Both the position numbers and the translations under genes were made by a program. Shown here piece by piece: positions 22,594 through 42,999 of a DNA stretch of 64,000 bases; positions within the stretch are counted from its first letter, which is position 1, and every line of letters begins with the position of its first letter. Origin of the DNA: Prevotella sp. Lineage in GTDB: Bacteria > Bacteroidota > Bacteroidia > Bacteroidales > Dysgonomonadaceae. The stretch covers positions 36,963 to 100,962 of the forward strand of contig JAITVV010000006.1 in assembly GCA_031285625.1 (NCBI GenBank), in the 5' to 3' direction. The notes beneath the pieces are model-generated. The model was not told the DNA's origin. It did no database searches and worked only from the letters and a program-made list of their open reading frames with translations.

Positions 22594-22625
22594 CAAACAA
22601 TATATTTAACTAAAAAAAGAATAGT

Positions 22626-26367: not shown

Positions 26368-26425
26368 TTAAAGAAAAATAATTTATCTTATTTTAACATA
26401 TGCGGTTACCTTAAATTATAAAACT

Positions 26426-27481
26426 ATGAAAAACCTGTTATACATATTTTTAATTTCAAATGCTTTACTTATTTCATGTTCAGGATCTCTTACCAAAGTT
26501 TCAGAGGAAGATATCTCAGTGAGTGTGGATGACATAAATCGGCCAAACTTTATTACTCTGAATAATAATGTTGTAAATGATGGTAAATTTGATGATGTAA
26601 AGTGGCAATTACCGTCAGGCGAAATTATTGATTCATTACGTTCATTCACCACATATTTTCCTCAAAAAGGAGATTATAAAGTTCTGATACATTTTACAAA
26701 AGGAAATAAAAAGACTGTTGTTACAAAAAATATAACAATAGAATCGGATGATCCTTATTATTCTAAAGGCGAGGTTCTGGTTTGGAATGATGAGTTTGAT
26801 GGTAATAGTCTGAACGAAAACTGGTGGTTCAATGAAACAGATATTCATGTAAATGATGAGTGGCAGATATATACTCCCGGTAAAAATATCAATATATCGG
26901 ATGGAATATTGACTATCACAGCTAAAAAGGAAGGTGAAGGACAGAAGTATGGGGATTATACTTCGGGCCGTCTTAACACTGAGGGGAAAAAAGAATTTCT
27001 GTATGGACGCATGGAAATCAGAGCAAAGTTGCCGGACGGAAGGGGAACATGGCCTGCCATATGGATGCTAGGTAAAGAACTGAGAACAATTGACTGGCCT
27101 GCATGTGGTGAAATAGATATTATGGAACATGTAGGTTATGATCCGAAAGTTATTAATTCGGCACTGCACACTACATCCAGTTGGGGAGCAACTCTCAACT
27201 CGGGGAAGACTACTATAGATACTTACGATTCTGATTTTCATATCTATGGGCTAAACTGGACAGCAGATAAACTGGACTTTTATGTAGATTCTCCAGATAA
27301 TATATTCTATACATATAATCCTATAATAAAAAATAAGGATACATGGCCTTTTGATCAACCATTCTTCTTTATTCTCAACTTTGCAGTCGGTGGCGGTTGG
27401 GGTGGAAAAGAAGGTGTAGATGATACAATATTTCCGCGTAATATGTATGTAGATTATGTGCGGGTATTTCAACCAAAATGA
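26426..27481 (+). CDS. GH16 laminarinase-like lipoprotein with PKD-like N-domain
   Basis: Lipobox LISC; VWNDEFDG, YTSGRL, GTWPAIWM, catalytic EIDIME, VDYVRV. Confidence 0.9.
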   Translation: MKNLLYIFLISNALLISCSGSLTKVSEEDISVSVDDINRPNFITLNNNVVNDGKFDDVKWQLPSGEIIDSLRSFTTYFPQKGDYKVLIHFTKGNKKTVVTKNITIESDDPYYSKGEVLVWNDEFDGNSLNENWWFNETDIHVNDEWQIYTPGKNINISDGILTITAKKEGEGQKYGDYTSGRLNTEGKKEFLYGRMEIRAKLPDGRGTWPAIWMLGKELRTIDWPACGEIDIMEHVGYDPKVINSALHTTSSWGATLNSGKTTIDTYDSDFHIYGLNWTADKLDFYVDSPDNIFYTYNPIIKNKDTWPFDQPFFFILNFAVGGGWGGKEGVDDTIFPRNMYVDYVRVFQPK

Positions 27482-27527
27482 TAACTGTTAAATTTTAAAA
27501 GTCGCTTCATAACTATATTAATTATTG

Positions 27528-27594
27528 GCAATAAAAATCCATTATATATGCATTTTTTATCCATTTAGTATTTGCCTTAATTTCAGTATGTTTA
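27528..27594 (+). promoter_or_regulatory. Tandem direct-repeat operator + -7 box upstream of susC3 (putative AraC site)
   Basis: GCAATAAAAATCCATT (27528-43) and GCATTTTTTATCCATT (27550-65), 22-bp period; TATGTTTA at 27587-94. Confidence 0.7.
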
Positions 27595-27625
27595 CTATTG
27601 TTAAACTATTATAAATCTAACTAGT

Positions 27626-30600
27626 ATGAAAATTTTCTTTTTTAAGAGGATCGCTATATTCATAGCGGTGCTAGCTATCTCTGTTGGAATTTTTTCGCAA
27701 GTAAATCCGGGCCAGGTATCTGGACTTGTAACTGATGGTGAAGAAAATCCACTAATAGGAGTAAGTATAAAGGTGAAGGGCACAAAGACCGGTACAGTAT
27801 CGGATTTTGATGGCAGGTATCAGATCAATATTTCCAGCGAAGCGGATGTGTTGATTTTTTCTTATGTTGGGTTTGCTCCCAAAGAAATAACGGTTGGTAA
27901 TAACAAAACTTTGAATGTAGTATTACAAGATGAACACAATGCGCTTGATGAGGTTGTGGTTACAGCTTTGGGGATCAAGCGTGAAAAAAAGGCTTTAGGT
28001 TATGCTGTACAAGATATCAAGGGAGACGTACTTACCGAAGTACGTGATCCTAATATGTTGAATTCTCTGGCCGGACAGGTAGCTGGGGTACAGATATCTA
28101 ATTCAGCGTCGGGGGGGCTCGGTGGCTCTCCTAAAATATCTATTCGTGGAGATATATCTTTTACGAATAGTGCTCCTCTTTTTGTAATAGATGGAGTACC
28201 ACTAAATAATAACTCCAGTAACTATAATACCGATGGGATGGATTTTGGTAGTGGTGCTGCTGATATTAATCCCGATGATGTGGAGTCTATGAGTGTTCTT
28301 AAAGGACCTACAGCTGCTGCATTATATGGTAGCCGTGCAGCAAATGGAGCTGTCGTGATTACAACAAAAAGCGGGAAAAAGAATAAAGGCTTAGGTATTA
28401 CTTATAATTCCAACCTGGTTATTCAACCACGATTATTAAGAACTCCAAATTATCAGTATAAATATGGTGCAGGTGAGAACTTTGAATATTCATATGTTGA
28501 TGGTAACGGAGGAGGAATAAATGATGGAGCTGGATATTGCTGGGGACCTAAATTAAATCAACTTGATCCAAGTACTGCAAGTGGTTTTGTAGAAATACCC
28601 CAATTTGCCAGTCCGATAGATCCGGTAACAGGAGCGCGTATAGCTATTCCGTGGGTAGCACATAAGAATTTTCTGGAAGATTTTTTTGAAACGGGAACCG
28701 TATTCACTAATAATGTATCAATTAGTAATGCCAACGAAAATGGAAGTTTCCGCCTTTCGTATACAAATCTCGATCAAAAAGGCATAATGCCTAATACCGA
28801 TCTTCAACGTAATACTGTTTCTCTTAGTGCAGGGTATAATCTTGCCAAATTCCTACGTGTAAATGCGAACGTTAATTATGTACAAAATAAGAGTGATAAT
28901 ATGCCTCAGTTGAATTATTGGGACAAGCCTATAATGTACACATTTATGTGGTGGGGAATGAATGAGGATGTAAAAGCTCTGAGAAATTATTGGACTCCGG
29001 GAAAAGAAGGGTTGGAACAGACCAATTATAACAATTCGTGGATGGATAATCCTTACTTTACATTGTATGAGAATACCCAATCACAACTAAAGAACCATCT
29101 ATATGGTAATGTGTCATTTACGCTAGATATAATAGATGGGCTTTCGTTGATGGGAAGAACGGGAACAGACTGGTATGATGATAATATACGTATAAGACGT
29201 GCCTATAGTTCGAGAAATTACCCCAATGGTATGTATGCTGTGAATAATTATATATTCCAGGAGCGAAATAGTGATTTCCTTCTCACATGGGATAAACCAA
29301 ATGAATCGAACTTTCAGTATAAAATATCATTCGGAGGTAATATGATGCGTCGCTCGATACGTAAAACCGCAGCAAAAGCCCTTGAACTGGAAATCCCAGG
29401 TATATATAATCTGGAAAATGCCAGATCTACACCTACATTAAATGAAGAAAATCAGGAAAAAGCCATTAACAGTTTGTATGGTATGGGACAACTGGTTTAC
29501 AAGAACATGCTATATCTGGATGTTACTGCCCGAAACGACTGGTCGAGTACATTGCCTCTCAACAATAACTCTTATTTCTACCCGTCTGTTTCTTTGAGTG
29601 GCTTGATTTCAGAGATGGTAACTTTACCTAAAGCAGTATCTTTTCTCAAGTTGAGAGGATCATGGGCACAGGTAGGTAATGATACAGACCCATACAAATT
29701 AGTGAACGTTTATCAGTTTGGTGGAAAATGGGGAAGTACAAGTTCCGCTTATGAGGGTGGTGGACTATTGAATTCATTGCTGAAACCTGAGAAGATAAAC
29801 AGTATTGAGTTTGGTGCGGACTTGCGCTTTTTGGGAGACCGGATAGGTCTTGATGTAGCGTATTATAATACAATTGCTACCAATCAGATATTGAATATGT
29901 CCATTGCTCCTAGCTCGGGTTATGATTCTAGAATGATAAATGCCGGAAAAATAGAGAGTCGTGGTTTTGAAGTTGTTCTGAATGCTACCCCTCTTCGTTT
30001 CAAAGATTTTGAATGGAATATGACACTCAACTGGTCTACAAATCGTGCGTATGTTCGCGAATTGGCAGATGGATTGGATACTTATGATATGGGATATAAT
30101 GCTCAGGCCAGAGTAGGTGGACGTATGGGTGACCTTTATGGCTGGGGCTTTAAGCATGCACCTGATGGACAGATGATTTATGGTGAAGATGGCTTACCTG
30201 TATGGGAAGATGAAATCAAGTGTTATGGTAATTATAATCCGGACTGGATGGCAGGATTGAAAAATTCATTTACATTCAAAAATTTCAGATTGTCGGCATT
30301 ACTCGATTACAGAAAAGGTGGACGCATTTTTTCAGGCACTTTGTCCAAAGGTATGGAAGGTGGTGTACTGGCAGAATCCGCTATTGGTAATCAACGAGAA
30401 GAAGGTCTCATCGGTGATGGCGTAATCGCTACGTACGATGCAGAAGGAAATGTTACCGGATACAGAAAAAATGATGTAAGGGTCAGTCTTCGCGACTGGA
30501 TAGGAAGATATCATAGTAGAGATTCATTCGAAACGAATAGTTATGATGCTTCTTATCTCAAACTGCGGGAAATAGGGCTTTCATATACTTTTCCTCAGAT

Positions 30601-30775
30601 CAAAATATCGGAAAACTATTCATTACGTAATGTGACCATAGGTGTTACGGGGCGTAATCTATGGATGTGGTCGAAAGCAAAACATATCGATCCCGAATCC
30701 GGAGGGTTTGGTTATGAGGATGTTCAGATACCTACACCTAAGAGTATAGGTTTCAATCTAAGTGTCTCTTTCTGA
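27626..30775 (+). CDS. SusC/RagA TonB-dependent transporter (no STN domain)
   Basis: LDEVVVTALGIKRE, DVESMSVLKGPTAAALYGSRA, RNDWSSTLP, terminal F. Confidence 0.96.
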   Translation: MKIFFFKRIAIFIAVLAISVGIFSQVNPGQVSGLVTDGEENPLIGVSIKVKGTKTGTVSDFDGRYQINISSEADVLIFSYVGFAPKEITVGNNKTLNVVLQDEHNALDEVVVTALGIKREKKALGYAVQDIKGDVLTEVRDPNMLNSLAGQVAGVQISNSASGGLGGSPKISIRGDISFTNSAPLFVIDGVPLNNNSSNYNTDGMDFGSGAADINPDDVESMSVLKGPTAAALYGSRAANGAVVITTKSGKKNKGLGITYNSNLVIQPRLLRTPNYQYKYGAGENFEYSYVDGNGGGINDGAGYCWGPKLNQLDPSTASGFVEIPQFASPIDPVTGARIAIPWVAHKNFLEDFFETGTVFTNNVSISNANENGSFRLSYTNLDQKGIMPNTDLQRNTVSLSAGYNLAKFLRVNANVNYVQNKSDNMPQLNYWDKPIMYTFMWWGMNEDVKALRNYWTPGKEGLEQTNYNNSWMDNPYFTLYENTQSQLKNHLYGNVSFTLDIIDGLSLMGRTGTDWYDDNIRIRRAYSSRNYPNGMYAVNNYIFQERNSDFLLTWDKPNESNFQYKISFGGNMMRRSIRKTAAKALELEIPGIYNLENARSTPTLNEENQEKAINSLYGMGQLVYKNMLYLDVTARNDWSSTLPLNNNSYFYPSVSLSGLISEMVTLPKAVSFLKLRGSWAQVGNDTDPYKLVNVYQFGGKWGSTSSAYEGGGLLNSLLKPEKINSIEFGADLRFLGDRIGLDVAYYNTIATNQILNMSIAPSSGYDSRMINAGKIESRGFEVVLNATPLRFKDFEWNMTLNWSTNRAYVRELADGLDTYDMGYNAQARVGGRMGDLYGWGFKHAPDGQMIYGEDGLPVWEDEIKCYGNYNPDWMAGLKNSFTFKNFRLSALLDYRKGGRIFSGTLSKGMEGGVLAESAIGNQREEGLIGDGVIATYDAEGNVTGYRKNDVRVSLRDWIGRYHSRDSFETNSYDASYLKLREIGLSYTFPQIKISENYSLRNVTIGVTGRNLWMWSKAKHIDPESGGFGYEDVQIPTPKSIGFNLSVSF

Positions 30776-30804
30776 TAAAGTAGCTATTTTAAATTTGAAA
30801 CATT

Positions 30805-32226
30805 ATGAAAAATTTTATATATATAATCGCTTTATTGCTATTTATGGGGGCTTGTACGAAGGATTTCGAAGACATAAACACCAATAAGAACAAGCCGGAA
30901 ACTATTATTCCTGACCTTTTACTAACATACCTGACATATCAAACTGTTGATACAGGACCTCAGGGTAGTGTAGTTACACAGCATTTAGCTGCGCGTGACT
31001 GGGTTGTTGGTCTGGGTAGATACGACTGGTGGGGAACTCCGTACTGGGATTACCCAAATTTACGGAATGCAAATAATCTTATTATTGAAGCCGAAAATAT
31101 GGGGAATGATAATTTTAAGGGAATAGGACTTATATTTAAAACATTCTTATTTTCCCGAACTACCGATTGTGTCGGTGATATTCCATTTAGTGAGGCTCTC
31201 AAAGGTAAAGAAGGGATCTATATGGCGAAGTATGATACTCAAGAAGAGGTGTATAAGGGTTTGTTGGCCTATCTTGATGAAGCTAATGACCTGATAGACG
31301 TCAATGGAACTTCTATTTCAGGGGATATTCTTTATGGAGGAGATTTACTGAAATGGAAAAAATTTGCCAATTCTCTTCATTTACGTTTGTTAATGAGAGT
31401 TTCAGAAAAAATGCCTGATGCAAAGGCAAAAATAAAGGCAATTGTGGATAATCCGGAAAAATACCCTATATTTGAAAGTAACGACGATATGGCCGCCTTG
31501 ACTTACCTTCCTGATGCGCCAAACAGATATCCGAACTATAATGCTGCGGGATACGATGCGGGTGAAGTAGTACTGGGTAAACCGCTTGCCGATACATTGT
31601 TGAACTATAATGATCCGCGTATAGCAAAAATGGCACAACCAACTATGGCATCTGTTAATGGTGGTACAGTTGAGTTTGTTGGAGTACCTTGTGGAATGAC
31701 TAAAGATGAGGCTTTGTCATATAACGGGGGACGCGAATATCAGTCACTTGTAAATGCTCGCTATAGCCATGACCCTGTTGGCGAAAAAGGTATTTTTATG
31801 TCTTATGCCGAACTCCAGTTTATCCTTGCTGAAGCAGCTCAAAAGGGATGGATCGGTGGAAGCGCCAAGGTTTATTATGAAAATGGGATAAGAAGCTCTT
31901 TCGAGTATTATGGGGTATCTGCAGATGTCGATAGTTACTTAACTGGTTCAAAAGTTACCTATAATCCGGCCAATGGTCTTTTACAAATTGGTGTACAAAA
32001 GTGGATTTCTTTCTATTTCAACTCCGGTTATGAATCATACTTTGACTATCGGCGTACTAAAATCCCATATCTGTTTCCGGGAACCGGAAACCTGAACGGC
32101 GGAAAGATTCCTGTACGATGGAAATATCCTGATTCGGAACAGAATTTAAATGGAAATAATTTTAAAGAAGCGATCGAAAGACAGGGAGCAGACAATATTA
32201 ATACTGCTATTTGGCTAACCAAGTAA
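30805..32226 (+). CDS. SusD-like lipoprotein
   Basis: Lipobox MGAC; GDIPFSEA, KWKKFANSLHLR, YAELQFILAEA, IGVQKWIS. Confidence 0.94.
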   Translation: MKNFIYIIALLLFMGACTKDFEDINTNKNKPETIIPDLLLTYLTYQTVDTGPQGSVVTQHLAARDWVVGLGRYDWWGTPYWDYPNLRNANNLIIEAENMGNDNFKGIGLIFKTFLFSRTTDCVGDIPFSEALKGKEGIYMAKYDTQEEVYKGLLAYLDEANDLIDVNGTSISGDILYGGDLLKWKKFANSLHLRLLMRVSEKMPDAKAKIKAIVDNPEKYPIFESNDDMAALTYLPDAPNRYPNYNAAGYDAGEVVLGKPLADTLLNYNDPRIAKMAQPTMASVNGGTVEFVGVPCGMTKDEALSYNGGREYQSLVNARYSHDPVGEKGIFMSYAELQFILAEAAQKGWIGGSAKVYYENGIRSSFEYYGVSADVDSYLTGSKVTYNPANGLLQIGVQKWISFYFNSGYESYFDYRRTKIPYLFPGTGNLNGGKIPVRWKYPDSEQNLNGNNFKEAIERQGADNINTAIWLTK

Positions 32227-32239
32227 CAACAACAGCAAA

Positions 32240-32274
32240 AGGAGAGGGTAACTAATCCCTCTCCTATGTTTTAT
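32240..32274 (+). terminator. Stem-loop after susD3 (attenuator/terminator)
   Basis: AGGAGAGGG-N8-CCCTCTCCT followed by ATGTTTTATT. Confidence 0.6.
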
Positions 32275-32296
32275 TAATGATTAAATATGGAATATA

Positions 32297-33217
32297 ATGC
32301 TTAACATTTACAAAGTCTTATTGAGTATTTCTCTTATTTTTTTAGTGTGTGCATGTAAAAATAATCAGTCAACTGCACCTGTAGAACTCAAAGTTATGAG
32401 TTTCAATATATGGGTAGGTGGAGGTAAGTCTATCGATGCTACAGGTAAAGTTTTTGCAGAAAGTAAAGCTGATATAATCGGTGTACAAGAGTCAACACGT
32501 AATGATAAAAATATTGCGGCTCAGTTGGCGGATAGTTTGGGATGGCATTCTTATGTATATGGACAGAGTACAGCAATAATAAGTAAATATCCGATAGTAG
32601 ATACCTCTGCGAACAAGCATGGTGTGAAAATCAAGATTGACGAAACTCATTTTGTATGGATGTTTAATATACATCTTATGTACTGTCCATACGAACCATA
32701 CCAATTGAATGGTATAGAATATTGTGGTGGGCCCATATTACAAACTGCAGAACAAGCTGTTGCTTCGGCTACTGCTACCAGAAGTAAAGAAGTAGAATCA
32801 ACTATTGCAGATATATTGGAAGTGGGAAAGGAAGGATTTCCTATCTTTCTTACAGGAGACTTTAATGAGCCTTCTTGTCTGGACTGGACGGTTAAGGCAG
32901 TAGAAGCAGGATTATGTAAAACTGCTGTGGAATGGCCTTCAACTAAAGCCTTTCTTAATAAGGGAGGTATGAAAGATTCGTACCGCATATCATATCCTGA
33001 CGAGGTAAAAAATCCCGGGCATACATGGACTCCACTACCGGAAACAACAGCATATAAGGAAGTCTTAGACCGTATCGACTTTGTTCTTTTCTCTGGAGAA
33101 AAAATAGAATTGAAAAACTCTGTTATCCTTGGGGAAGAGAGTTCTAAGAGTGATGTTGGCTTTAAAGATTATCCATCAGATCACAGAGCAGTAATGAGTA
33201 CTTTCATGCTGAAGTAA
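32297..33217 (+). CDS. Endonuclease/exonuclease/phosphatase (EEP) family lipoprotein
   Basis: Lipobox near VCAC; VMSFNIW, IGVQE, TGDFN, RIDFV, YPSDHRAV (full EEP catalytic set). Confidence 0.9.
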   Translation: MLNIYKVLLSISLIFLVCACKNNQSTAPVELKVMSFNIWVGGGKSIDATGKVFAESKADIIGVQESTRNDKNIAAQLADSLGWHSYVYGQSTAIISKYPIVDTSANKHGVKIKIDETHFVWMFNIHLMYCPYEPYQLNGIEYCGGPILQTAEQAVASATATRSKEVESTIADILEVGKEGFPIFLTGDFNEPSCLDWTVKAVEAGLCKTAVEWPSTKAFLNKGGMKDSYRISYPDEVKNPGHTWTPLPETTAYKEVLDRIDFVLFSGEKIELKNSVILGEESSKSDVGFKDYPSDHRAVMSTFMLK

Positions 33218-34112
33218 TTTTGCTTGACAGTTTGTTTACAACACGGTATCTGGCTGGAGAGGTACCCATCATTTTCTTGAAAAGCCGTGAGTAATAATAA
33301 GGATCGTCAAATCCTACCAGAATAGATATCTGATTGATCTTCATCGTGCTATTAAGCAAGTAATAGCACGATCGTTGTACTTTTAGTTGGTTGAAAAACT
33401 CCATTGGTGCAATACCCATATTTTTATAGAATAGTCTGTAAAAATATGAAACAGAATATCCAAAGTGTTCAGCTATATCCGATAGCTTTAACTTATTTCC
33501 TATATTTTCATTCATATAGTGTGTCGCCAGATGGATAAGTGAAGTCCCATACCGGTTCTCAGCTTTCGAATTTCTGTGAGTCTTTACATATAATATAGAG
33601 CCTAAGAAATATGCCAGGCCAAAGTTTGCATATTGTAATGCACCATCATCATGTGAATCAGATAAGACATTGTAAATATCTTCAAAAACTTTGAAGCGTT
33701 CATCAATACGCGAGTTATTTTCGGGATCGATAGATATTACTTTGCCATATATTTCAGAAAATAGTTTCGATTTGTATCCTTTGAAGTGTATCCAGTAAAT
33801 TGTCCAGGGATTAGTCTCATTTGCACCATAACGGTGAGCTGTATTAGCAGGAAGTATAATGAATTGATTTTCATTTACTGAATGTACTTTTCCATTTAGT
33901 TCAAACCATCCTCCTCCTTTGGTACAATAGATAAGAATATTTTCAGGACATCCTGTCGGTCTGTTTATATAGTGATATTTGGCAGAAGGAAAATATCCCA
34001 AAGAATGAAAGTAAATATCATTCATCATCGGATTTTTATCCATCTCCTCGACAATAAAATACGGTAATATAATGCTCCATTGTCCATGGAAACCGTGTTT
34101 GATCTGTGTCAT
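33204..34112 (-). CDS. AraC-family transcriptional regulator with cupin sensor domain
   Basis: LIYCTKGGG..HRYGA..PWTIYWIHF cupin; C-terminal GFDDPYYYSRLFKKMMGTSP HTH. Confidence 0.95.
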   Translation of the reverse strand: MTQIKHGFHGQWSIILPYFIVEEMDKNPMMNDIYFHSLGYFPSAKYHYINRPTGCPENILIYCTKGGGWFELNGKVHSVNENQFIILPANTAHRYGANETNPWTIYWIHFKGYKSKLFSEIYGKVISIDPENNSRIDERFKVFEDIYNVLSDSHDDGALQYANFGLAYFLGSILYVKTHRNSKAENRYGTSLIHLATHYMNENIGNKLKLSDIAEHFGYSVSYFYRLFYKNMGIAPMEFFNQLKVQRSCYYLLNSTMKINQISILVGFDDPYYYSRLFKKMMGTSPARYRVVNKLSSKITSA

Positions 34113-34144
34113 TTTAGGTTAGTTATTTGTCCCACGTAAAATTA

Positions 34145-34210
34145 GCAATAATAATCCATTTTTTATGAATGATTTATCCATTTTGTGAGCATAACAAATA
34201 TATAATTTTG
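34145..34210 (+). promoter_or_regulatory. Tandem direct-repeat operator + -7 box between divergent araC and the methyltransferase operon
   Basis: GCAATAATAATCCATT (34145-60) and GAATGATTTATCCATT (34167-82), 22-bp period; TAATTTTG at 34203-10. Confidence 0.72.
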
Positions 34211-34391
34211 TTAATACAACTTAACCATGGAAAATCGTGTGTCAGGGATGTAAAATATAGGTAATTAATTAATCCCTGATTACATCAAGATCAAAATAAA
34301 AACGAAATATACTTATACATTAATGAATTATCTAAATGTAAGGATTATCCAGTAATTCCCTTACAGGAAGCTAAATCTTACCTTAAAAATT

Positions 34392-35642
34392 ATGGCTACA
34401 TCAAAAAAACGTGTGCTGGATGCACTCAATCACAGAAACAGTGACCGTATTCCTGTCGATTTCGGCACTACCGGAGTCACGGGTATCCACTGTAAAGTTA
34501 TAGAGGGTCTTCGCCGTCATTACGGGCTGGCAGATCGACCCGTGAAAATTGTAGAACCTTTTCAGATGCTTGGCGAGGTTGACGAAGAACTGCAACAAAT
34601 TGTGCGCACAGACTGTGTTGGTATATATGGAAAAAAGGATATGTTTTCCATAGATGAATCGGAACTTCATGAACAGGTAACTCCATGGGGCCAACATGTG
34701 TTGATCGCCAGGGATATAGATCTTACTCCCGATAAGAATGGCGATGTATATATCTATGCAGAAGGAGACCGCTCATATCCTCCATGTGCAGTTATGCCGC
34801 AAGGGTGTTATTTTATCAATGCAATAGAGAGAGTTGATAATTATGATGAATCTAATATCAGACTTGAAGATAATACAGAAGAATATTCATATATCTCAGA
34901 TGAAGATTTAGATCATTTTACGAGCGAAATAGAAAAAGCTTCACACACCGAAAAAGCTATAATAGCCAGTTTTGGTGGAGCAGCTCTCGGTGATATTGCA
35001 TTTGTACCGGGTATGGGATTAAAGGATCCAAAGGGAATAAGAAGTGTAGCCGAATGGTATATGTCTACTGCTTTGCGTCCCGAATTTATCCACCGGATAT
35101 TTGATAAACAAATAGATATTGCAATTGAGAATTACAAAAAACTATGGGATAGGGTAGGGAGTAAAGTAGATGTTGTCTTTACTTGTGGTGCTGATTTCGG
35201 TACACAAGAATCTCAATTCTGTTCAGCGGCTTCATTCAATGAATTATGGGTTCCTCACTATAAGAGGATGAACGATTGGATACATGAGAATACAACATGG
35301 AAAGTATTCAAGCATTGCTGTGGTTCTATTATTCCTTTGATTCCTTCCCTGATAGAAGCAGGATTTGATATTCTCAATCCTGTGCAGATAAATGCAAAAG
35401 ATATGGATTCTCACCGCCTGAAATCTGAATTTGGAGACCATCTTACATTTTGGGGTGGAGGTATTGATACCCAAAAGGTACTGCCAAAAGGTACTCCTGA
35501 AGAAGTGAAACGACATGTATTAGGACAATGTGAAATCTTTGGTAAAGATGGTGGATTTGTATTCACCTCCGTACACAATATACAGGCAAATGCCCCGATA
35601 GAAAATGTAGCAGCTATGTTTGATGCTTTAAATACAATATAA
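34392..35642 (+). CDS. UroD/MtaA-superfamily TIM-barrel protein, putative corrinoid methyltransferase
   Basis: RVLDALNH..DRIPVDFG, DFGTQ, FKHCCG, GFDILNPVQ, FWGGGIDTQ, GGFVFTSVHNIQ; adjacent to a corrinoid protein. Confidence 0.8.
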   Translation: MATSKKRVLDALNHRNSDRIPVDFGTTGVTGIHCKVIEGLRRHYGLADRPVKIVEPFQMLGEVDEELQQIVRTDCVGIYGKKDMFSIDESELHEQVTPWGQHVLIARDIDLTPDKNGDVYIYAEGDRSYPPCAVMPQGCYFINAIERVDNYDESNIRLEDNTEEYSYISDEDLDHFTSEIEKASHTEKAIIASFGGAALGDIAFVPGMGLKDPKGIRSVAEWYMSTALRPEFIHRIFDKQIDIAIENYKKLWDRVGSKVDVVFTCGADFGTQESQFCSAASFNELWVPHYKRMNDWIHENTTWKVFKHCCGSIIPLIPSLIEAGFDILNPVQINAKDMDSHRLKSEFGDHLTFWGGGIDTQKVLPKGTPEEVKRHVLGQCEIFGKDGGFVFTSVHNIQANAPIENVAAMFDALNTI

Positions 35643-35649
35643 AACAGAT

Positions 35650-36285
35650 ATGGAAAATTTAAATAATATATACGAAGCTGTATTAAAAGGTAATTTGCCT
35701 TTAGCCGTAGAATCAGCGCAAAAGGCTATCACAGAAAATGTAGATCCTCAGATAATAATCAATGATTATATGTCGAAGGCTATGGAGGAGATCGGTTCCC
35801 GGTTCGAATCTGGTCAGGCATTTGTCCCGGAATTGTTAATGTCGGCGCGTGCCATGAAAGGAGCACTTGATCTGCTGAAACCTCTGTTGGCGAATAATTC
35901 TTCTGCAAGTCTGGGTAAAGTAGTAATAGGTACTGTAAAGGGAGATCTGCACGATATTGGCAAAAACCTTGTAGCATCCATGTTGGAAGGTTGTGGTTTT
36001 GATGTGATAAATCTGGGTGTAGATATTTCTTCCGAAAAGTTTGTGCAGGCTGTAAAAGAGCATAATGCAAATATTGTTTGTCTGTCGGCACTACTGACCA
36101 CTACCATGAACTATATGAAAGAAATTGTAATTGCCTTGGAAAAGGAAGGCTTGCGTAATAATGTTAAGATTATGATTGGTGGAGCGCCTATCAGTTCTGA
36201 ATTTGCAAATGAAATAAATGCTGATGGATATAGTGATAATGCAAATTCTGCCGTAAATCTGGCAAAACAATTAATTGCTTCTTAA
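35650..36285 (+). CDS. Cobalamin-binding corrinoid protein (MtaC/MtbC/MttC-like)
   Basis: Cap domain (FVPELLMSARAM) plus base-off His-on motif GDLHDIGKNLV..SALLTTT..IGGAP. Confidence 0.93.
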   Translation: MENLNNIYEAVLKGNLPLAVESAQKAITENVDPQIIINDYMSKAMEEIGSRFESGQAFVPELLMSARAMKGALDLLKPLLANNSSASLGKVVIGTVKGDLHDIGKNLVASMLEGCGFDVINLGVDISSEKFVQAVKEHNANIVCLSALLTTTMNYMKEIVIALEKEGLRNNVKIMIGGAPISSEFANEINADGYSDNANSAVNLAKQLIAS

Positions 36286-36295
36286 ATCTGATACT

Positions 36296-36982
36296 ATGAA
36301 ATCATCTTCAATTCCTTTTTTAGATTTGAATCTGAGCAAACAGTATGTTCTGGAAGAGATGGGGTATGGTACTGTTACTCCTGATCATGCTGTGACAGCT
36401 ATCTTGGATGAATTTTTTAAATTACTCGAAAAAGAGGTTGTGACAGAATATATTTTTAATATGTATGAAGGGCAAATGGGTGATGGTAAGATCATATTTG
36501 GTAATACTTGCCTTGGTGCTGGGAATACAATTACCTCTCTTCTGAAAAACTCGGTAAAATATGTCATTTTTGCAGCTACTGCAGGACCTCATTTTGATAA
36601 AAGAATGCAACAGGTAAAGGCAGGGGATGATATGCTCAGAACCTATATACTGGATGCTATCGGGACTTGTATAGTCGAAAAGACAGGAGATATTATGGAA
36701 ATGCATATTAAGCAGGAGATTAATGGGCTCAATCATACTAATCGCTTCAGTCCCGGTTATTGTGGCTGGCCATTAACTGATCAGAGAAATCTGTTTCAGT
36801 TAATAGGTGGGAGGCCTTGTGGAATCACCTTATCTGAAGTCTGTCTTATGCATCCCATTAAATCGATAAGTGGTATAATGGGTATAGGTCAGAATGTAAA
36901 TCAGAAACTATATGGATGTAACTTTTGTGAATTGGAAACTTGTTATAAACGAAAAAAACTTAAAACCCGAGCTACTGTATGA
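36296..36982 (+). CDS. Stand-alone MetH (methionine synthase) SAM-dependent reactivation-domain protein
   Basis: FAATAG, LDAIGT..VE, RFSPGYCGW, MHPIKSISG, C-terminal CNFCELETC; ATG 36296 preferred over the TTG at 36275 that overlaps the upstream gene. Confidence 0.8.
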   Translation: MKSSSIPFLDLNLSKQYVLEEMGYGTVTPDHAVTAILDEFFKLLEKEVVTEYIFNMYEGQMGDGKIIFGNTCLGAGNTITSLLKNSVKYVIFAATAGPHFDKRMQQVKAGDDMLRTYILDAIGTCIVEKTGDIMEMHIKQEINGLNHTNRFSPGYCGWPLTDQRNLFQLIGGRPCGITLSEVCLMHPIKSISGIMGIGQNVNQKLYGCNFCELETCYKRKKLKTRATV

Positions 36983-38004
36983 CTATGAATATGAAAGAAT
37001 GGATATCCCGGATAATAGAATCACCTGTGAGGATAGCCATCCCAATAATGACTCATCCTGGCATCGAATATCTGGGAAAGACAGTAAAAGAGGTTGTAAC
37101 TGATGGTACAGTCCACTTTGAAGCCATAAAGGCTTTGAATAATATGTATCCTCCGGCAGCTTGTACTGTTATCATGGATCTCACTGTGGAGGCGGAAGCT
37201 TTCGGAGCGGAAGTAGTTTTTCCCGAAAATGAAATTCCTACAGTTACAGGAAGGTTAGTATATGATATAGATTCTGTAAAAAATCTCGAAATACCGGATA
37301 TGACTAAAGGACGATTACCCGAATACATTTTAGCTAACAAGCTAACTGCTGAAAATATAAAAGATAAGCCGGTTTTTGGTGGTTGTATCGGTCCTTTTTC
37401 CTTAGCCGGACGTCTCTACGATATGTCTGAATTAATGATGGCATGCTATACAGAACCTGAAATAGCTAAATTGTTATTAGCAAAATGCGCTACATTCCTT
37501 AAGGATTATTGTACAGAACTGAAAAGGCAAGGTATTCAGGGTATCGTAATTGCAGAACCTGCAGCGGGATTACTTTCTAACGAGGGGTGTCAGGAATTTT
37601 CTTCTGAATATATAAAACCCATTGTGGAAGCTCTGCAGGATGACGAATTTATAATTATCCTCCATAACTGTGGAAATAAAGGACATTGTACAGACGCTAT
37701 GTTAAGCACGCAGGCCAAAGGATATCACTTTGGTAATATGATGAATATGGAATTGGCACTTGATCAATGTCCTGCAGATACTTTGGTATTAGGTAATCTT
37801 GATCCGGTAGGTGTATTCAAGAATGCTTCTGTAGAACAAATGGAATCGGAGGTATTTGGCTTATTGGATAAAACCAGGTTACATCCCAATTTTGTATTAT
37901 CTTCCGGATGTGATATACCACCACATATACCATTAGAAAATATAGAAGCTTTTTACCGGGCATTGGACAAATTCAACGAACAATCATCGCAAATAGTTAA
38001 ATAG
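36979..38004 (+). CDS. MtaA/MtbA-like methylcobamide:thiol methyltransferase (UroD family)
   Basis: MDLTVEAEAFGA, GPFSLA, AEPAA, Zn ligands ILHNCG and LSSGCDI, GNLDP; ATGA overlap with upstream gene. Confidence 0.85.
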   Translation: MTMNMKEWISRIIESPVRIAIPIMTHPGIEYLGKTVKEVVTDGTVHFEAIKALNNMYPPAACTVIMDLTVEAEAFGAEVVFPENEIPTVTGRLVYDIDSVKNLEIPDMTKGRLPEYILANKLTAENIKDKPVFGGCIGPFSLAGRLYDMSELMMACYTEPEIAKLLLAKCATFLKDYCTELKRQGIQGIVIAEPAAGLLSNEGCQEFSSEYIKPIVEALQDDEFIIILHNCGNKGHCTDAMLSTQAKGYHFGNMMNMELALDQCPADTLVLGNLDPVGVFKNASVEQMESEVFGLLDKTRLHPNFVLSSGCDIPPHIPLENIEAFYRALDKFNEQSSQIVK

Positions 38005-38070
38005 CAAATATTGTCCATTCTTTTGGCAAAATTAGTCTATCTTTTTTATAGTCGAAATTGATTATTTTTG
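38004..38070 (+). promoter_or_regulatory. Tandem direct-repeat operator + -7 box upstream of the Gfo/Idh/MocA gene
   Basis: GCAAATATTGTCCATT (38004-19) and GCAAAATTAGTCTATC (38026-41), 22-bp period; TATTTTTG at 38063-70. Confidence 0.65.
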
Positions 38071-38197
38071 TTTTGATAGTATTATGAAAAGCTAACTAAG
38101 ATTCACAAACAAGGTACTACAATCTGAGACCTTAATTATCCATGATTTTTATATTAAATTTCTTTAGTATACAACTGTAAATAAAATAAGACAAGAA

Positions 38198-39388
38198 ATG
38201 GATCGTAAACAATTTATTTCCCGATTAGGTACAATAGGCGCTGCAGCAGTTGCTGCTCCTATTATTGGTACATCATCATTAGAGGCTGCAGTATCATCCA
38301 CAAATAATACAACTCTTTCATCAAATAAAATCCGTGTAGGTGTTATTGGATGTGGTAGCGTATCAGGCATGTATTTGCCACATTTAACCAAATGTCCGTA
38401 TGCCGAGGTTGTAAGTGTATGCGATATTATACCACAAAAAGCGCAGGATGCTGCAAAAAAATACAATGTAAAAAACTGGTATCCTCACATAGATAAAATG
38501 CTGGCTGGTGTGCCTTTCGATCTGCTTGTAAATCTTACCGATATGCAGGAACATGGTCGGTTGAATCGTCTGGCCCTGATGAAGAAGGTTAATGTGTGGA
38601 GCGAGAAACCTATGGCAAATACCTATGATGAAGGTCGCGAATTGTACGAACTGGCTAAAGTTCAAGGAGTACGTATATGGGGTGCACCGGCAATTGTAAA
38701 TAGCCCTCAGTTTGCTTTTATGGCAAAACAAATCAATGAAGGCAATCTGGGACGCATTGCAGCAGCGCATGCTCATTATGGACATCAGGGGCCTAATTGG
38801 TCTGCATTTTTCTTCGAAGAGGGAGGAGGCAGCTTGCCGGATTTGGGTGTATACAACATATCTACATTGACCGGTTTATTCGGGCCGGCTAAATCTATTG
38901 TAGCCATGACTAATGTGGTAGATCCTACACGCAATACAGGAAATAAAGGACATATACAGGTCGTGGCCGAAGATAATGCTATGATTATTATGGAACATCA
39001 GAATAATATACTTTCTCATATTCAATGCGGGTTCAACTATTTTGATCCGTATGGCCATGAAGGTACGGGACAGGAACGTCCTACAATATCTGTTGTAGGT
39101 TCTACCGGAAATATGCACATGATTGGTTACGATTGGAAACCATTCGGTGTAGATATGGCTACGATGGCAAATGAGAAAACTCAACGTTTTGCTACTGATC
39201 CAGGTACATTCCTATGGGAAGAAGGGGCTTCTGCAATATGTGAATCCATGGTTACCGGAAAGGAATCTTTGATCAATGCAGAACATGCATTACATGTATT
39301 GGAAATTATTGAAGCAGCGCGTCTGTCGCAAAAAGAAGGTAAAAGAGTTTCGTTAAGATCTTCTTTCAAATGGCCGGTTGTGATATAG
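38198..39388 (+). CDS. Gfo/Idh/MocA oxidoreductase with Tat-like leader
   Basis: DRKQFI leader; VIGCGSVS, WSEKPMA, GGGSLPDLGVY, HVLEIIEAA. Confidence 0.88.
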   Translation: MDRKQFISRLGTIGAAAVAAPIIGTSSLEAAVSSTNNTTLSSNKIRVGVIGCGSVSGMYLPHLTKCPYAEVVSVCDIIPQKAQDAAKKYNVKNWYPHIDKMLAGVPFDLLVNLTDMQEHGRLNRLALMKKVNVWSEKPMANTYDEGRELYELAKVQGVRIWGAPAIVNSPQFAFMAKQINEGNLGRIAAAHAHYGHQGPNWSAFFFEEGGGSLPDLGVYNISTLTGLFGPAKSIVAMTNVVDPTRNTGNKGHIQVVAEDNAMIIMEHQNNILSHIQCGFNYFDPYGHEGTGQERPTISVVGSTGNMHMIGYDWKPFGVDMATMANEKTQRFATDPGTFLWEEGASAICESMVTGKESLINAEHALHVLEIIEAARLSQKEGKRVSLRSSFKWPVVI

Positions 39389-39422
39389 TGCACTAATATA
39401 TAAATATATAACTATTTTTTGT

Positions 39423-39722
39423 TTGTTATTGTGGTGGTACATCTTTGGGGCCAGAAGTCCAATATTACCAGTCTGATCCCAAGATGGCCCACAATGACAA
39501 TAAGGGAAAAGATAAGAAGGGTAGATCTAAATAAGGATGAGAACGATTGTAGCCAAATAATGTAAAAAGGTTGGTTTAATGAGTAGAATTATTGGTAGAG
39601 ATAACTTATCTCTGTTAGGCTTCAATCAGGATATTCTCATCTCAAGGTCTTGAGTTGGAATCTAAAGTAGAAACTTCGGCTAGAGTAGCAGCTACTGGAG
39701 TTTCTACTGGATTCTTGCCAAC
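39423..39722 (+). other. Highly structured intergenic element (candidate ncRNA or element remnant)
   Basis: Three long stems (39423-39500; 39536-39554 with 39618-39641; 39654-39722); mismatches in the two outer hairpin helices are G-U compatible on the + strand. Confidence 0.4.
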
Positions 39723-39758
39723 ATTTATTTAGGTTGATAAATAAAACCGAATGCTTTC

Positions 39759-39766
39759 TATATTTG
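39759..39766 (+). promoter_or_regulatory. Bacteroidetes -7 promoter box for the DUF1080 operon
   Basis: TATATTTG about 50 nt upstream of ATG 39816. Confidence 0.5.
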
Positions 39767-39815
39767 TTAGAAAAGGATGAAATGTAGTATATAAATAAAT
39801 CGAAATAAAAGAGTT

Positions 39816-40610
39816 ATGAAAAAGATTTCTTATTTCTTATTAACTTCTGCCGCTATGTTACTATTTGCGTGTGGGGGTAAAAAAGCAGAACAATCTTCTT
39901 CTGAAGGAGAAAAAAATGCAGACCCGATGGTCTTGTATGGAGAAATAGACCGTACATCAGTACCAAATACTATTACTGAAGCCGAAAAGTCGAAAGGATG
40001 GCAATTGCTGTTTGACGGGACAACAGCCAATGGCTGGCATGGCTATAATCTGAAAGGGGTTCCGGATTGCTGGGCTATAGAAGATGGGGCTTTAACAATG
40101 AAAAGTGTAGGTGCTCAGGAAGAAGAGCAAGATCTTCTTACAAACAAGGAATACAAAAAATTTGCACTATCTTTAGAATATAAGATGACAAAAGGAGCAA
40201 ACAGTGGTATTGTATTCCAAATAAAAGAAGATCCTAAATATAGATTTGCATACGAAACAGGACCTGAATTTCAGGTTATTGATCACGAAAACTGGCATGA
40301 AAAACTGGAAGACTGGCAGATAAACGGAGGAAATTATGCTATGTATCCGCCAATCGCAAAACCTTATAAAGCTATAGGTGAATGGAACCAGCTGATGTTG
40401 GTTGTAAATGGTAATGATGTAACTCAGATTTTGAATGGGGAGGTAACGGTTAAGTATACAAAATATTCAGATGAATGGACAAAACTCCGCAATAGTGGGA
40501 AATGGTCTGCTTTTCCTGATTATGGAAAATATGATGAGGGTTATATCTCGCTACAGAACCATGGTACAAAAGTTTGGTACAGAAATATTATGATTAAAGA
40601 ACTAAAATAA
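39816..40610 (+). CDS. DUF1080 (3-keto-disaccharide hydrolase/lyase family) lipoprotein
   Basis: Lipobox LFAC; LLFDG..GW, ANSGIVF, GPEFQVID, GYISLQNHG..YRNIMIKEL. Confidence 0.9.
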   Translation: MKKISYFLLTSAAMLLFACGGKKAEQSSSEGEKNADPMVLYGEIDRTSVPNTITEAEKSKGWQLLFDGTTANGWHGYNLKGVPDCWAIEDGALTMKSVGAQEEEQDLLTNKEYKKFALSLEYKMTKGANSGIVFQIKEDPKYRFAYETGPEFQVIDHENWHEKLEDWQINGGNYAMYPPIAKPYKAIGEWNQLMLVVNGNDVTQILNGEVTVKYTKYSDEWTKLRNSGKWSAFPDYGKYDEGYISLQNHGTKVWYRNIMIKELK

Positions 40611-40618
40611 TTTATCAT

Positions 40619-42097: not shown

Positions 42098-42107
42098 AGG
42101 TGTATTC

Positions 42108-42145
42108 AAGGGGAGTGCGTACGGGGTTTTAAGCACTCCCTTTAT
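42108..42145 (+). terminator. Stem-loop after the oxidoreductase
   Basis: AAGGGGAGTGC-N14-GCACTCCCTTT. Confidence 0.55.
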
Positions 42146-42177
42146 CCATTGATTGTTCATCCTTAATCTTATAGAAT

Positions 42178-42993
42178 ATGAAATACATTAAGTTATTGAT
42201 ATTACCTTTTATCCTATGTCTTATTGCATGCACTGGCGAGCCAGAGAAGCCTGATTGGAAATTAGGAATGCAAACATATACTTTCCACAAATTCACATTA
42301 ATGGAAACCCTTGATAAATCGAAAGATCTCGGTATCCACTATGCTGAAGCCTTCTTTTTCCAGTCGCTGGGAACTAATTTCGCCGATTCTGCATATCTCA
42401 ATTATGATATATCCGAAGATGTGAAGAAGCAGTTGAAAGAAGAGTTTGCTAAACGGGATATTACTTTATACGCATTTGGTGTAGCATTCTATGATACTAC
42501 CGATGAGTGGGAGCATTTCTTTAGCTTCGCTAAGGATATGGGTATCCATATTGTAACGTGCGAACCAAAACTCGAACATCTTGATTTTGTAGAACAACTA
42601 GCCTTGAAATATAATATACAAGTAGCTATACATAACCATCCTGATCCATCTGTATATGCAGATCCCAAAGTATTAGAGAAAGCACTTGAAGGCCGCAATC
42701 AAATAATGGGTGTATGTGCCGATATTGGACATTGGAAAAGGACAGGTAACGATCCTATAGCGACTCTTAAGAAGTTTGAAGGCCGGATAAAAGTAGTGCA
42801 TATCAAGGATTTGAGTGAAAAGCTGGAAGATACAACCTGGGGTACCGGAATTCTGCAAGTGAAAGAGGTCTTGGCTGAATTGAAAAGACAAAAATTTGAT
42901 GGACTTGTATCTATTGAATATGAAAACTTCGGAGATTCGCAACTTGATGATATAAAGAAAAGTTTGGAATATTATAACCTGAATCTAAAGTAA
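42178..42993 (+). CDS. Sugar phosphate isomerase/epimerase (xylose-isomerase-like TIM barrel) lipoprotein
   Basis: Lipobox LIAC; AIHNH, CADIGHW, VHIKD, SIEYE metal motifs. Confidence 0.87.
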   Translation: MKYIKLLILPFILCLIACTGEPEKPDWKLGMQTYTFHKFTLMETLDKSKDLGIHYAEAFFFQSLGTNFADSAYLNYDISEDVKKQLKEEFAKRDITLYAFGVAFYDTTDEWEHFFSFAKDMGIHIVTCEPKLEHLDFVEQLALKYNIQVAIHNHPDPSVYADPKVLEKALEGRNQIMGVCADIGHWKRTGNDPIATLKKFEGRIKVVHIKDLSEKLEDTTWGTGILQVKEVLAELKRQKFDGLVSIEYENFGDSQLDDIKKSLEYYNLNLK

Positions 42994-42999
42994 TTTAAA

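Follow-up and report, generated by a model that had tools for sequence, protein, structure and literature searches.

A candidate oxygen-independent, B12-dependent demethylase for O-methyl sugars in a Bacteroidales glycoside-utilisation system

We analysed a 64,000-nucleotide (nt) stretch of DNA (the window) assigned to a Prevotella sp. of the Dysgonomonadaceae (Bacteroidales; NCBI GenBank assembly GCA_031285625.1, contig JAITVV010000006.1, positions 36,963 to 100,962). Within it, genes for SusC/SusD-type import, a phosphoesterase-fold lipoprotein and an AraC-family regulator adjoin four genes resembling a corrinoid-dependent methyltransferase system, and it is this candidate demethylation system, centred on the UroD-like protein MT416, that we describe here.

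Gene content and organisation of the locus

The nine genes that a first-pass annotation had placed here were all recovered, in the same positions, from the open reading frame (ORF) list and from Pfam and NCBIfam searches. Together with two direct repeats they are:

27537-27565, +: ATCCATT-N15-ATCCATT direct repeat, candidate AraC operator before susC (perfect match)
27626-30775, +: SusC-type TonB-dependent transporter (TIGR04056, 1e-199; Pfam)
30805-32226, +: SusD-like lipoprotein (SusD-like_2, 6.8e-94)
32297-33217, +: EEP, secreted lipoprotein with an endonuclease/exonuclease/phosphatase fold (Exo_endo_phos, 1.5e-14; lipobox)
33204-34112, -: AraC-family regulator, AraC_binding cupin ligand domain plus helix-turn-helix (Pfam, NCBIfam)
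34154-34182, +: ATCCATT-N15-ATCCATT direct repeat, araC/MT416 intergenic region (perfect match)
34392-35642, +: MT416, UroD-like protein of 416 amino acids (aa) (URO-D, 2.4e-15, C-terminal half only)
35650-36285, +: CorP, corrinoid protein (B12-binding_2 and B12-binding; pyl_corrinoid, 1e-59)
36275-36982, +: Met_synt_B12 protein, stand-alone homologue of the reactivation domain of MetH, which binds S-adenosylmethionine (SAM) (PF02965, 1.1e-9)
36979-38004, +: MT341, MtaA-like protein of 341 aa (URO-D, 2e-54; MtaA/CmuA, 5e-31)
38198-39388, +: Gfo396, Gfo/Idh/MocA oxidoreductase of 396 aa with an N-terminal export-like leader (Pfam, NCBIfam)

The four genes of the methyltransferase module form a compact operon, with a 7-nt gap followed by overlaps of 11 nt and 4 nt, and the Gfo396 gene starts 193 nt past the MT341 gene. 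The araC gene converges with, and slightly overlaps, the EEP gene and diverges from the MT416 operon. An adjacent susC/susD pair, an AraC regulator and secreted degradative enzymes are thus found together, as in a polysaccharide-utilisation locus (PUL). Between susD and the EEP gene lies a GC-rich hairpin with a T tail (32240-32265, +; nine pairs, six of them G-C) that is terminator- or attenuator-like. The same gene order over 26000-45500 recurs in contigs of three other insect-associated sequencing runs and is therefore no assembly artefact; the nearest named relatives of the locus proteins are those of Dysgonomonas.

A Tannerellaceae contig (L009) brings these units into a single array. There, an araC gene diverges from 14 co-directional genes separated by gaps of at most 160 nt, in the order Gfo511, DUF1080, Gfo396, GH97 (glycoside hydrolase (GH) family 97), DUF1080, Gfo492, xylose-isomerase-like protein, MT416, CorP, MetH-type activation protein, MT341, EEP, SusC and SusD. 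The array proteins are 47-81% identical to their counterparts in the window (AraC 60%, EEP 62%, Gfo396 75%), which are dispersed over 21058-23423 and 27626-44982. The further genes, with one GH16 neighbour, are:

21058-22593, +: Gfo511, Gfo/Idh/MocA oxidoreductase of 511 aa, exported by twin-arginine translocation (Tat) (Pfam; RRKFLG Tat motif; 81% orthologue first after AraC in L009)
22626-23423, +: DUF1080/3-keto-disaccharide hydrolase-like lipoprotein (Pfam, 1.3e-50; signal peptide; 76% orthologue in the L009 array)
26426-27481, +: GH16 laminarinase-like lipoprotein, directly upstream of the susC operator (Pfam; best Protein Data Bank (PDB) match ULam111, 5wut, 1.7e-73)
39816-40610, +: second DUF1080/3-keto-disaccharide hydrolase-like lipoprotein (Pfam, 3.2e-45; L009 orthologue)
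40619-42097, +: Gfo492, second Tat-exported Gfo/Idh/MocA oxidoreductase, 492 aa (TRRNFLK motif; 80% L009 orthologue)
42178-42993, +: xylose-isomerase-like TIM-barrel lipoprotein (72% orthologue directly before MT416 in L009)
43000-44982, +: secreted GH97 (61% L009 orthologue)

Because the L009 array holds these extra genes, the functional unit is wider than the borders first drawn. The proposal of the first-pass annotation that SusCD-EEP, AraC, the corrinoid module and the Gfo gene belong together is supported by the single array and by the perfect repeat common to two promoters, and the predicted system also takes in the remaining Gfo genes and those at 39816-44982. To see here a PUL without carbohydrate-active enzymes would be an artefact of the borders chosen, which overlook GH97 and the neighbouring GH16. 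Gfo511 sits in the window within an upstream PUL governed by an extracytoplasmic function (ECF) sigma factor, and the GH16 gene has no counterpart in the L009 array, so that its membership is uncertain.

A Tat-exported Gfo protein, a secreted DUF1080 protein and a xylose-isomerase-like protein, recognised by their domains and signals, are the parts of a periplasmic 3-keto-glycoside pathway, and glycan cleavage here would rest largely on that pathway, GH97 and the neighbouring GH16. By their N-terminal sequences EEP, the DUF1080 proteins and the xylose-isomerase-like protein are lipoproteins and the 492- and 511-aa Gfo proteins bear Tat signals; the four module proteins (MT416, CorP, the MetH-type activation protein and MT341) lack signal sequences and are therefore predicted to be cytoplasmic. 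The NCBIfam BT_2158/2159 models were matched weakly, by Gfo396 alone, in a scan that did not extend to the two Tat-exported Gfo proteins. The best PDB matches of Gfo396 are 6jw6 ('Dehydrogenase') and the C-glycoside enzyme DgpA. For GH97, the nearest solved structures are α-galactosidases (3a24, 1.1e-90; 5e1q, 8.5e-90), against 2.6e-84 for an α-glucosidase (5hq4).

Regulation by AraC had been read from an operator shared by all three plus-strand units. For two of them, susC and MT416, the shared repeat is borne out: their promoters carry the only zero-mismatch ATCCATT-N15-ATCCATT sites in the 64 kb, with none at one or two mismatches and 27 matches against 19.6 expected at up to three, although the pattern was derived from the two sites themselves and the test is therefore post hoc. 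The Gfo396 promoter, by contrast, is degenerate: at the same spacing a good half-site (GTCCATT) is paired with a poor one (GTCTATC), with four mismatches in total by eye. Two identical 14-base signatures at the promoters flanking araC fit tandem half-sites two helical turns apart, and the regulator has the cupin ligand domain and helix-turn-helix of an AraC-type activator, for which the two repeats of 22-nt period would be the operators. In L009 the sole near match to the repeat is found close to araC but on the other strand, and has one mismatch and 16-nt spacing. A B12 or other riboswitch was considered and dismissed, as Rfam gave no match at gathering scores anywhere in the window and none in 27400-40000 even at E ≤ 1, and the 183-nt leader of MT416 folds no better than shuffled sequences (z = -0.72).

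Several other features of the window can be recorded here. In the 80-nt gap before the xylose-isomerase-like gene, a perfect ATCCATT half with a poor half (42144-42172, three mismatches in all) could be a weak extra operator or a chance match. The 427-bp gap between Gfo396 and the next DUF1080 gene (39389-39815) contains no ORF of at least 80 aa and no Rfam match. A separate PUL at 45237-55348 encodes a hybrid two-component-like regulator, SusC/SusD and a PF10091 'glycoamylase' protein with CBM30, and a further one at 913-13954 (-) encodes an ECF sigma/anti-sigma pair, SusC/SusD, GH123, a DUF5107 protein and GH3.

Components of the corrinoid module

That the module holds the parts of a three-component corrinoid methyltransferase system, as the first-pass annotation had it, is borne out by domains, by the motifs of CorP and by the zinc ligands of MT341. 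CorP consists of a helical cap and a Rossmann B12 domain (PF02607 and PF02310; TIGR02370, 1.2e-59), with DxHxxG, SxL and GG invariant in 20 homologues. MT341 aligns with MtaA (4ay7) over 268 residues and keeps its three zinc ligands, which belong to LHxCGN and GC motifs found unchanged in seven orthologues; its NCBIfam scores of 102-124 bits lie below the MtaA/MtbA cut-offs of 244-600. On these grounds we propose that MT341 is a zinc-dependent methyl-corrinoid:acceptor methyltransferase (MT II). Because production of coenzyme M is not known from Bacteroidota, its acceptor must differ from that of MtaA.

A RACE/Ram-type activator (PF14574, RACo_C_ter) was not found in the genome of the window, which is 94% complete, and the control matched in Methanosarcina. 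Met_synt_B12 has three matches in this genome: one is MetH, and the others are two small proteins, one per module. The putative activator resembles the SAM-dependent reactivation domain of MetH rather than the RACE type. No pterin-binding or PF02574 gene lies at the locus. In a genome of the same order (G031), a homologue of the activation protein (C66:23853-24512) has one in-frame TAA within the match, which may mean either a disrupted gene or an error in sequencing.

MT416 is a cytoplasmic protein of the UroD/MtaA fold with an inserted β-domain (AlphaFold2 (AF2) model, predicted local distance difference test (pLDDT) score 86). The top Foldseek match of the model is MtaA (4ay8, E 4.6e-12). 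VIA places UroD (1j93; Z 23.0, root-mean-square deviation (rmsd) 3.6, 307 aligned) beside MtaA (4ay7; Z 21.9, rmsd 3.8, 307 aligned), and the family that follows reaches only 13.5. At the sequence level the only PDB match is the methyltransferase I (MT I) enzyme CdmB, and it is weak (E 0.006); ESM Atlas returned URO-D-named clusters only, and NCBIfam scores against the MtaA/MtbA models (39-44 bits) fall below cut-off. Most of the residues that never vary in the family are polar. When the MT416 and MT341 families are aligned as profiles, H308 and C310 of MT416 fall on the His and first Cys of MT341, and the invariant H395 on the second Cys, so that MT416 would have a His-Cys-His site and MT341 a His-Cys-Cys site, an assignment made by hhalign at 82% probability. 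A triad of H308, C310 and C380 was considered and dropped, since this alignment sets H395, not C380, at the third ligand.

A model of the MT416-CorP complex reached an ipSAE of 0.61, against 0.00 for the best of three controls; the ipSAE mark used was reached by 58 of 80 solved complexes and by 2 of 110 mismatched pairs. The partners have pLDDT of at least 79, separate runs agree in at least 90% of contacts, and the predicted interface involves the conserved residues 219-228 and 274-281. The model supports docking of MT416 on CorP, and with the motifs it leads us to propose that MT416 is the substrate:corrinoid methyltransferase (MT I).

A second module occurs in the same genome (L089, C14:38000-57999, genes 6615-15051, -), adjoining a PfkB kinase and SusC/SusD. 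It comprises, in order, a UroD-like protein (364 aa), a GH38-like protein (850 aa), an MtaA-like protein (334 aa, 60% identical to MT341), another UroD-like protein (353 aa), CorP, Met_synt_B12 and an MFS protein. In a quick maximum-likelihood tree, the variable proteins like MT416 stand apart from a conserved MtaA-like group containing MT341 and its gut orthologues, and the second module contributes two members to the former and one to the latter. Such a grouping is what would be seen if several MT I enzymes relied on a single MT II.

Distribution and neighbours of the MT416 family

The MT416 family is large: of 8000 scored candidates, at least 7595 count as relatives at E ≤ 0.001. The top 120 are all 65-94% identical and include entries of Dysgonomonas, Tannerella, Prevotellaceae and Bacteroides fragilis, and in species-representative genomes 592 of 600 pattern matches among the matches listed encode an MT416 relative. 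Cultured carriers of the module are Bacteroides intestinalis (L012), Parabacteroides faecis (L016) and P. segnis (L013). In an even sample of the phylum, MT416 (E ≤ 1e-60) occurs in 6 of 401 genomes; a stand-alone CorP homologue (E ≤ 1e-40) is found in all six, against 49 of 401 overall, and in three of the six the two genes lie on different contigs. Because related genomes are not independent, this co-occurrence is a pattern and not a statistic.

We compared the 80 best loci around MT416 relatives, using crude ORF calls that were clustered, the large clusters being named by Pfam. The recurrent clusters were:

MFS Sugar_tr transporter: 27 of 80 loci
CorP: 18 of 80 loci
MetH-type activation protein: 16 of 80 loci
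GH120: 16 of 80 loci
Tat-exported Gfo protein (Gfo49x): 15 of 80 loci
950-aa GH2-like protein: 15 of 80 loci
MtaA-like protein: 14 of 80 loci
unnamed 197-aa protein: 13 of 80 loci
hexokinase: 11 of 80 loci
DUF1080: 9 of 80 loci
GH29: 8 of 80 loci
GH2: 8 of 80 loci
homocysteine S-methyltransferase (PF02574), in the module: 7 of 80 loci
UroD-thioredoxin fusion: 6 of 80 loci
CobW-like GTPase (CobW-type metallochaperone): 4 of 80 loci

The anchor gene was called in 77 of these loci (L065, L071 and L086 were left out). Within four genes of MT416, in an uncontrolled count, 50 of the 77 have a sugar-related gene and 22 a corrinoid-module gene, 11 having both and 16 neither; 'sugar-related' here means a sugar transporter, secreted GH, Gfo/DUF1080 or hexose kinase, with annotated families alone counted. 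The corrinoid protein itself is that close in 19 of 77. Three orders recur: transporter-GH120-MT416-GH29-hexokinase-GH2; MT416-transporter-GH2-like; and DUF1080-Gfo-MT416 followed by the full module with the homocysteine methyltransferase. The neighbouring GH120 protein is genuinely homologous to a xylosidase (3vst, 5e-175). The neighbouring glycosidases have signal peptides, and MT416 and the hexokinase have none. In B. intestinalis the module sits in a mannan-type locus of GH26, GH5, GH3, GH130, MFS_2 and epimerase genes.

Two variants were seen among these loci. Six environmental Bacteroidota (L019, L031, L039, L052, L060 and L075) encode a UroD-like protein of 538 aa with a C-terminal thioredoxin domain, often with a CobW-type GTPase and an FKBP isomerase in the same locus. 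Thirteen Rikenellaceae-type loci (for example, L036:9286-9876, -) hold a conserved cytoplasmic protein of 190-210 aa that is divergent from MT416 and has no Pfam match.

The first-pass annotation had suggested a methylated sugar or phosphoester as the imported substrate. As the MT416 family recurs beside sugar transporters, glycosidases and hexose kinases across many lineages, the sugar is favoured. The phosphoester or nucleotide alternative has found no support, because EEP accompanies the module in close relatives only (1 of 80 loci, L009, and two further contigs by inference) and its fold match is generic: the AF2 model (pLDDT 84.5) gave ExoIII/APE1/TDP2-like matches alone, at TM scores of about 0.5-0.65. 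EEP has no informative sequence match in the PDB, and its homologues bear no functional names. EEP-fold mannose-6-phosphatases are known from yeast-mannan PULs of Bacteroides thetaiotaomicron, and the locus protein could conceivably resemble them.

Proposed demethylation route and comparison with known systems

We lean, if only slightly, towards the view that the system contains an oxygen-independent, B12-dependent demethylase for an imported O-methyl sugar, working within one AraC-controlled glycoside-utilisation system. From gene content, folds and motifs, synteny and family neighbourhoods, all of which are observed, we infer which way the methyl group moves, that its donor is a sugar, what accepts it, how the genes are regulated and in which compartments of the cell the following route would run. 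A small methylated glycan or glycoside would enter via SusCD and be broken down in the periplasm by the Tat-exported Gfo proteins, the DUF1080 3-keto-glycoside hydrolases, the xylose-isomerase-like protein, GH97 and the phosphoesterase lipoprotein. The resulting methyl-ether sugar, refractory to ordinary sugar enzymes, would move into the cytoplasm, where the putative His-Cys-His zinc site of MT416 would hold it while Co(I) of CorP takes the methyl group, leaving the free sugar to a kinase. At the His-Cys-Cys zinc site of MT341 the methyl group of methyl-Co(III) would then pass to a thiol. Homocysteine, to which the PF02574 genes of 7 of 80 loci point, is our best guess, and sulfide or another thiol is possible. 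Sulfide has a precedent as a volatile methyl sink in Holophaga, in line with the weak activity of an Mlp enzyme on sulfide (PMC10418091). Corrinoid oxidised to Co(II) would be rescued by the MetH-like activation protein through reductive methylation with SAM and a flavodoxin-type donor, a reaction with SAM and a low-potential donor being established for MetH itself.

The tilt towards an O-linked methyl group on a sugar comes from the company of transporters, kinases and glycosidases, the polar invariant residues and the change of a zinc Cys to His. No single sugar fits all contexts: in the window GH97 leans to α-galactosides and GH16 to laminarin, and mannose, xylose or fucose contexts are found elsewhere. 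Mannose-type contexts recur (the GH38-like gene, GH26/GH130, hexokinase), as do xylosidase and fucosidase genes, and from these recurring neighbours (hexokinase, GH38-like, GH26/GH130, GH120 xylosidase and GH29 fucosidase) the substrate may be O-methyl-mannose or some other methyl-hexose. A conceivable source would be the methylated, xylosylated N-glycans of microalgae (PMC7383745). A wider proposal could well be correct, although we do not quite expect it to be: that MT416 is the founding member of a large, unstudied family of sugar O-demethylases that need B12 but no oxygen, found in many anaerobic Bacteroidota and some Planctomycetota and Acidobacteriota, which would act on methyl-ether sugars of plant, algal, fungal and invertebrate glycans and pass the methyl group to homocysteine or another thiol.

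Several observations weigh against a sugar demethylase. MT416 is without a corrinoid-module gene at a distance of up to four genes in 55 of 77 loci, so that the family could also work without a corrinoid protein, and some of the sugar-gene adjacency is expected by chance because Bacteroidota genomes are rich in sugar genes. The His-Cys-His site depends on the alignment probability given above. Cysteine-rich zinc sites are tied to S- and Se-methyl chemistry (Kountz & Balskus, PMC10418091); MT341 appears to have such a site and MT416 to keep one Cys of it. Queried with the activation protein of the window, only two of the five other MT416 genomes gave a match. PF02574 is represented in the genome of the window by full-length MetH only, with no stand-alone homocysteine methyltransferase. 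Gut-type MT341 (five loci) and PF02574 (seven loci) never occur in one locus together; MT341 as a plain substitute for the homocysteine methyltransferase was nonetheless abandoned, because MtaA-like genes of a sister clade are retained in the loci with PF02574. The substrates of the UroD-type O-demethylases so far known are aryl methyl ethers, and an alkoxide leaves less readily. Finally, two RNA-labelled libraries, among four runs examined, contain the locus in long contigs whose depth is even across genes and spacers alike, and may therefore be DNA.

These points keep other explanations in play. Aryl-ether precedents, the cysteine-rich zinc site, the 55 loci and the two-in-five activator matches are our reasons for retaining an aromatic donor, a sulfur or selenium donor and a module that is a mere neighbour. 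In the first of these, the donor would be a methoxylated aromatic aglycone of a lignin-derived or flavonoid glycoside, the 3-keto pathway freeing glucose and the module demethylating the phenol. The characterised UroD-type O-methyl MT I enzymes named in the Cdm paper all act on methoxylated aromatics, and MtvB, OdmB and VdmB are listed there as close relatives of CdmB (PMC13222342), itself the sole PDB sequence match of MT416; BT2156-2160-type pathways take unusual aglycones such as glucosinolates (PMC8121099), and the likely source of the DNA is a termite gut. We nevertheless regard this explanation as unlikely. The commonest neighbour is the MFS Sugar_tr transporter directly beside MT416, often followed by hexokinase, the mannan-type locus and the GH120/GH29/GH2 sets come without aromatic-catabolism genes, and the mostly polar invariant residues of MT416 contrast with the CdmB cavity, described as aromatic (PMC13222342). 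Improbable, too, is action on methyl-S or methyl-Se compounds, as in the type 1 mlp clusters, with the sugar-locus position due to something else such as a methylthio-sugar substrate. The His-Cys-Cys site of MT341 is of the type linked to S/Se methyl transfer, one such Mlp enzyme methylated selenide and, more slowly, sulfide (PMC10418091), and MT416 keeps the His and one Cys. However, a thiol-type site such as that of MT341 would be needed by an MT II acceptor enzyme in any case, the recurrent neighbours show no sulfur- or selenium-metabolism genes, the mlp clusters carry the Ram/RACE activator that was not found in the 94% complete genome of the window, and 'Bacteroid', 'sugar' and 'carbohydrate' occur nowhere in the main text of that paper (PMC10418091).

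Alternatively, the module may be a separate operon for methyl scavenging or methionine supply that merely lies beside a PUL whose cargo is an ordinary, unmethylated glycoside. The homocysteine methyltransferase in 7 of 80 loci points to a methionine product, MT416 neighbourhoods vary greatly by lineage and the third operator is weak; yet in L009 the module stands mid-array, between the periplasmic enzymes and EEP-SusCD, an identical perfect repeat precedes susC and the module, and the second module of the genome again lies within a SusCD locus, which makes this quite improbable in our view. We attach still less credence to MT416 being some other UroD-fold sugar-modifying enzyme that does not depend on a corrinoid, with MT341 alone working with CorP. 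The 55 loci fit it, as do a fold as near to UroD decarboxylases as to MtaA and a Pfam match spanning only the C-terminal half, but the corrinoid protein is within four genes in 19 of 77 loci, a close CorP homologue is encoded somewhere in all six sampled carrier genomes, the MT416-CorP model passes its controls, and the His-x-Cys metal motif of MtaA, which UroD lacks, is conserved.

Sugar methyl ethers block ordinary glycosidases, kinases and isomerases, and their enzymatic removal is so far known only from a P450 that requires O2. If the sugar demethylase reading is correct, the system would be the missing anaerobic counterpart of that enzyme. Glycan degradation would join the B12-dependent processes of the gut, giving Bacteroidales a further reason to compete for B12, and sugar breakdown would be tied to the formation of methionine or methyl-thiols. 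It would also represent a corrinoid methyltransferase system predicted to be served by a MetH-type, SAM-dependent activator in place of the RACE ATPase. The enzymes would then have names, and the question could be put to cultured gut species that carry the module. A 2025 study of porphyran use in the gut states that anaerobic demethylation of methyl-galactose has yet to be explained and calls it 'a mechanism to be discovered' (PMC12316285). Our full-text literature search, whose scope excluded subscription journals and supplements, found no corrinoid-dependent sugar demethylase described, though one may have been described elsewhere.

The closest known systems are the O-demethylases OdmABCD, VdmB and MtvABC of acetogens and Desulfitobacterium and MtoABCD of archaea, in which, as in the composition proposed for the module, the genes of a UroD-superfamily MT I (about 400-430 aa, with insertions) stand together with those of a small corrinoid protein, an MT II and a Co re-activator (in part PMC13222342), and which cleave methyl ethers without O2, as proposed here. 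They differ in acting on aryl methyl ethers, in passing the methyl group to tetrahydrofolate or tetrahydromethanopterin through a pterin-binding MT II, and in using an ATP-dependent RACE/Ram activator and feeding the Wood-Ljungdahl pathway (again in part PMC13222342), whereas the module of the window has an MtaA-like putative MT II, a MetH-like activator with no RACE found, a fermenting Bacteroidales host and a SusCD locus. With the soluble coenzyme M methyltransferases MtaA, MtbA and MtsA of methanogens and their partner MtaC (4ay7) it shares the MtaA zinc ligands (MT341), the fold (MT416) and a CorP of MtaC/MtbC/MtgC type, but the window proteins score far below the NCBIfam cut-offs. CdmB of the chloromethane dehalogenase CdmBCA of Acetobacterium dehalogenans (9rui) is an MT I with the UroD fold, 429 aa long and extended between its first strands; its cavity is hydrophobic and metal-free and needs no zinc (PMC13222342), in contrast to the predicted His-Cys-His site and many polar invariants of MT416. 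The type 1 mlp clusters of non-methanogens (Kountz & Balskus, bioRxiv 2023, PMC10418091) also combine several MtaA-like proteins with a corrinoid protein and lack a tetrahydrofolate methyltransferase, but they are mostly from Firmicutes, have Ram/RACE and His-Cys-Cys sites throughout, and have proposed methyl-S/Se substrates. By these descriptions the lack of a Ram/RACE match and the predicted His at the third ligand of MT416 set the present module apart.

MetH has homologues of the B12 cap, Rossmann and reactivation parts, and 7 of 80 loci add its homocysteine domain as a separate gene; the module parts, however, are separate proteins, and its donor module has a UroD fold rather than the methyl-folate barrel. 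The periplasmic side resembles BT2156-BT2160 of B. thetaiotaomicron, which encode a Tat-exported Gfo-like oxidoreductase (BT2158), a periplasmic DUF1080 3-keto-disaccharide hydrolase (BT2157) and a xylose-isomerase-like protein; there the regulator is reported to be of the SusR family, not AraC, and the word 'corrinoid' occurs 0 times in the main text (PMC8121099). The P450 sugar O-demethylase of marine bacteria, which acts on 6-O-methyl-galactose, has the same net outcome as that proposed here, a methyl-ether sugar converted to the plain sugar within a polysaccharide-utilisation system, but the P450, with its ferredoxin and reductase, needs O2 and releases formaldehyde (PMC12316285, PMC6292453, PMC10033563), whereas the window system would use nucleophilic methyl transfer to Co(I) without O2 and shares no homology with it. 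The corrinoid methyl-transfer relay is textbook knowledge; what would be new is the substrate class, the embedding in a PUL with a 3-keto-glycoside pathway, and the MetH-type activator.

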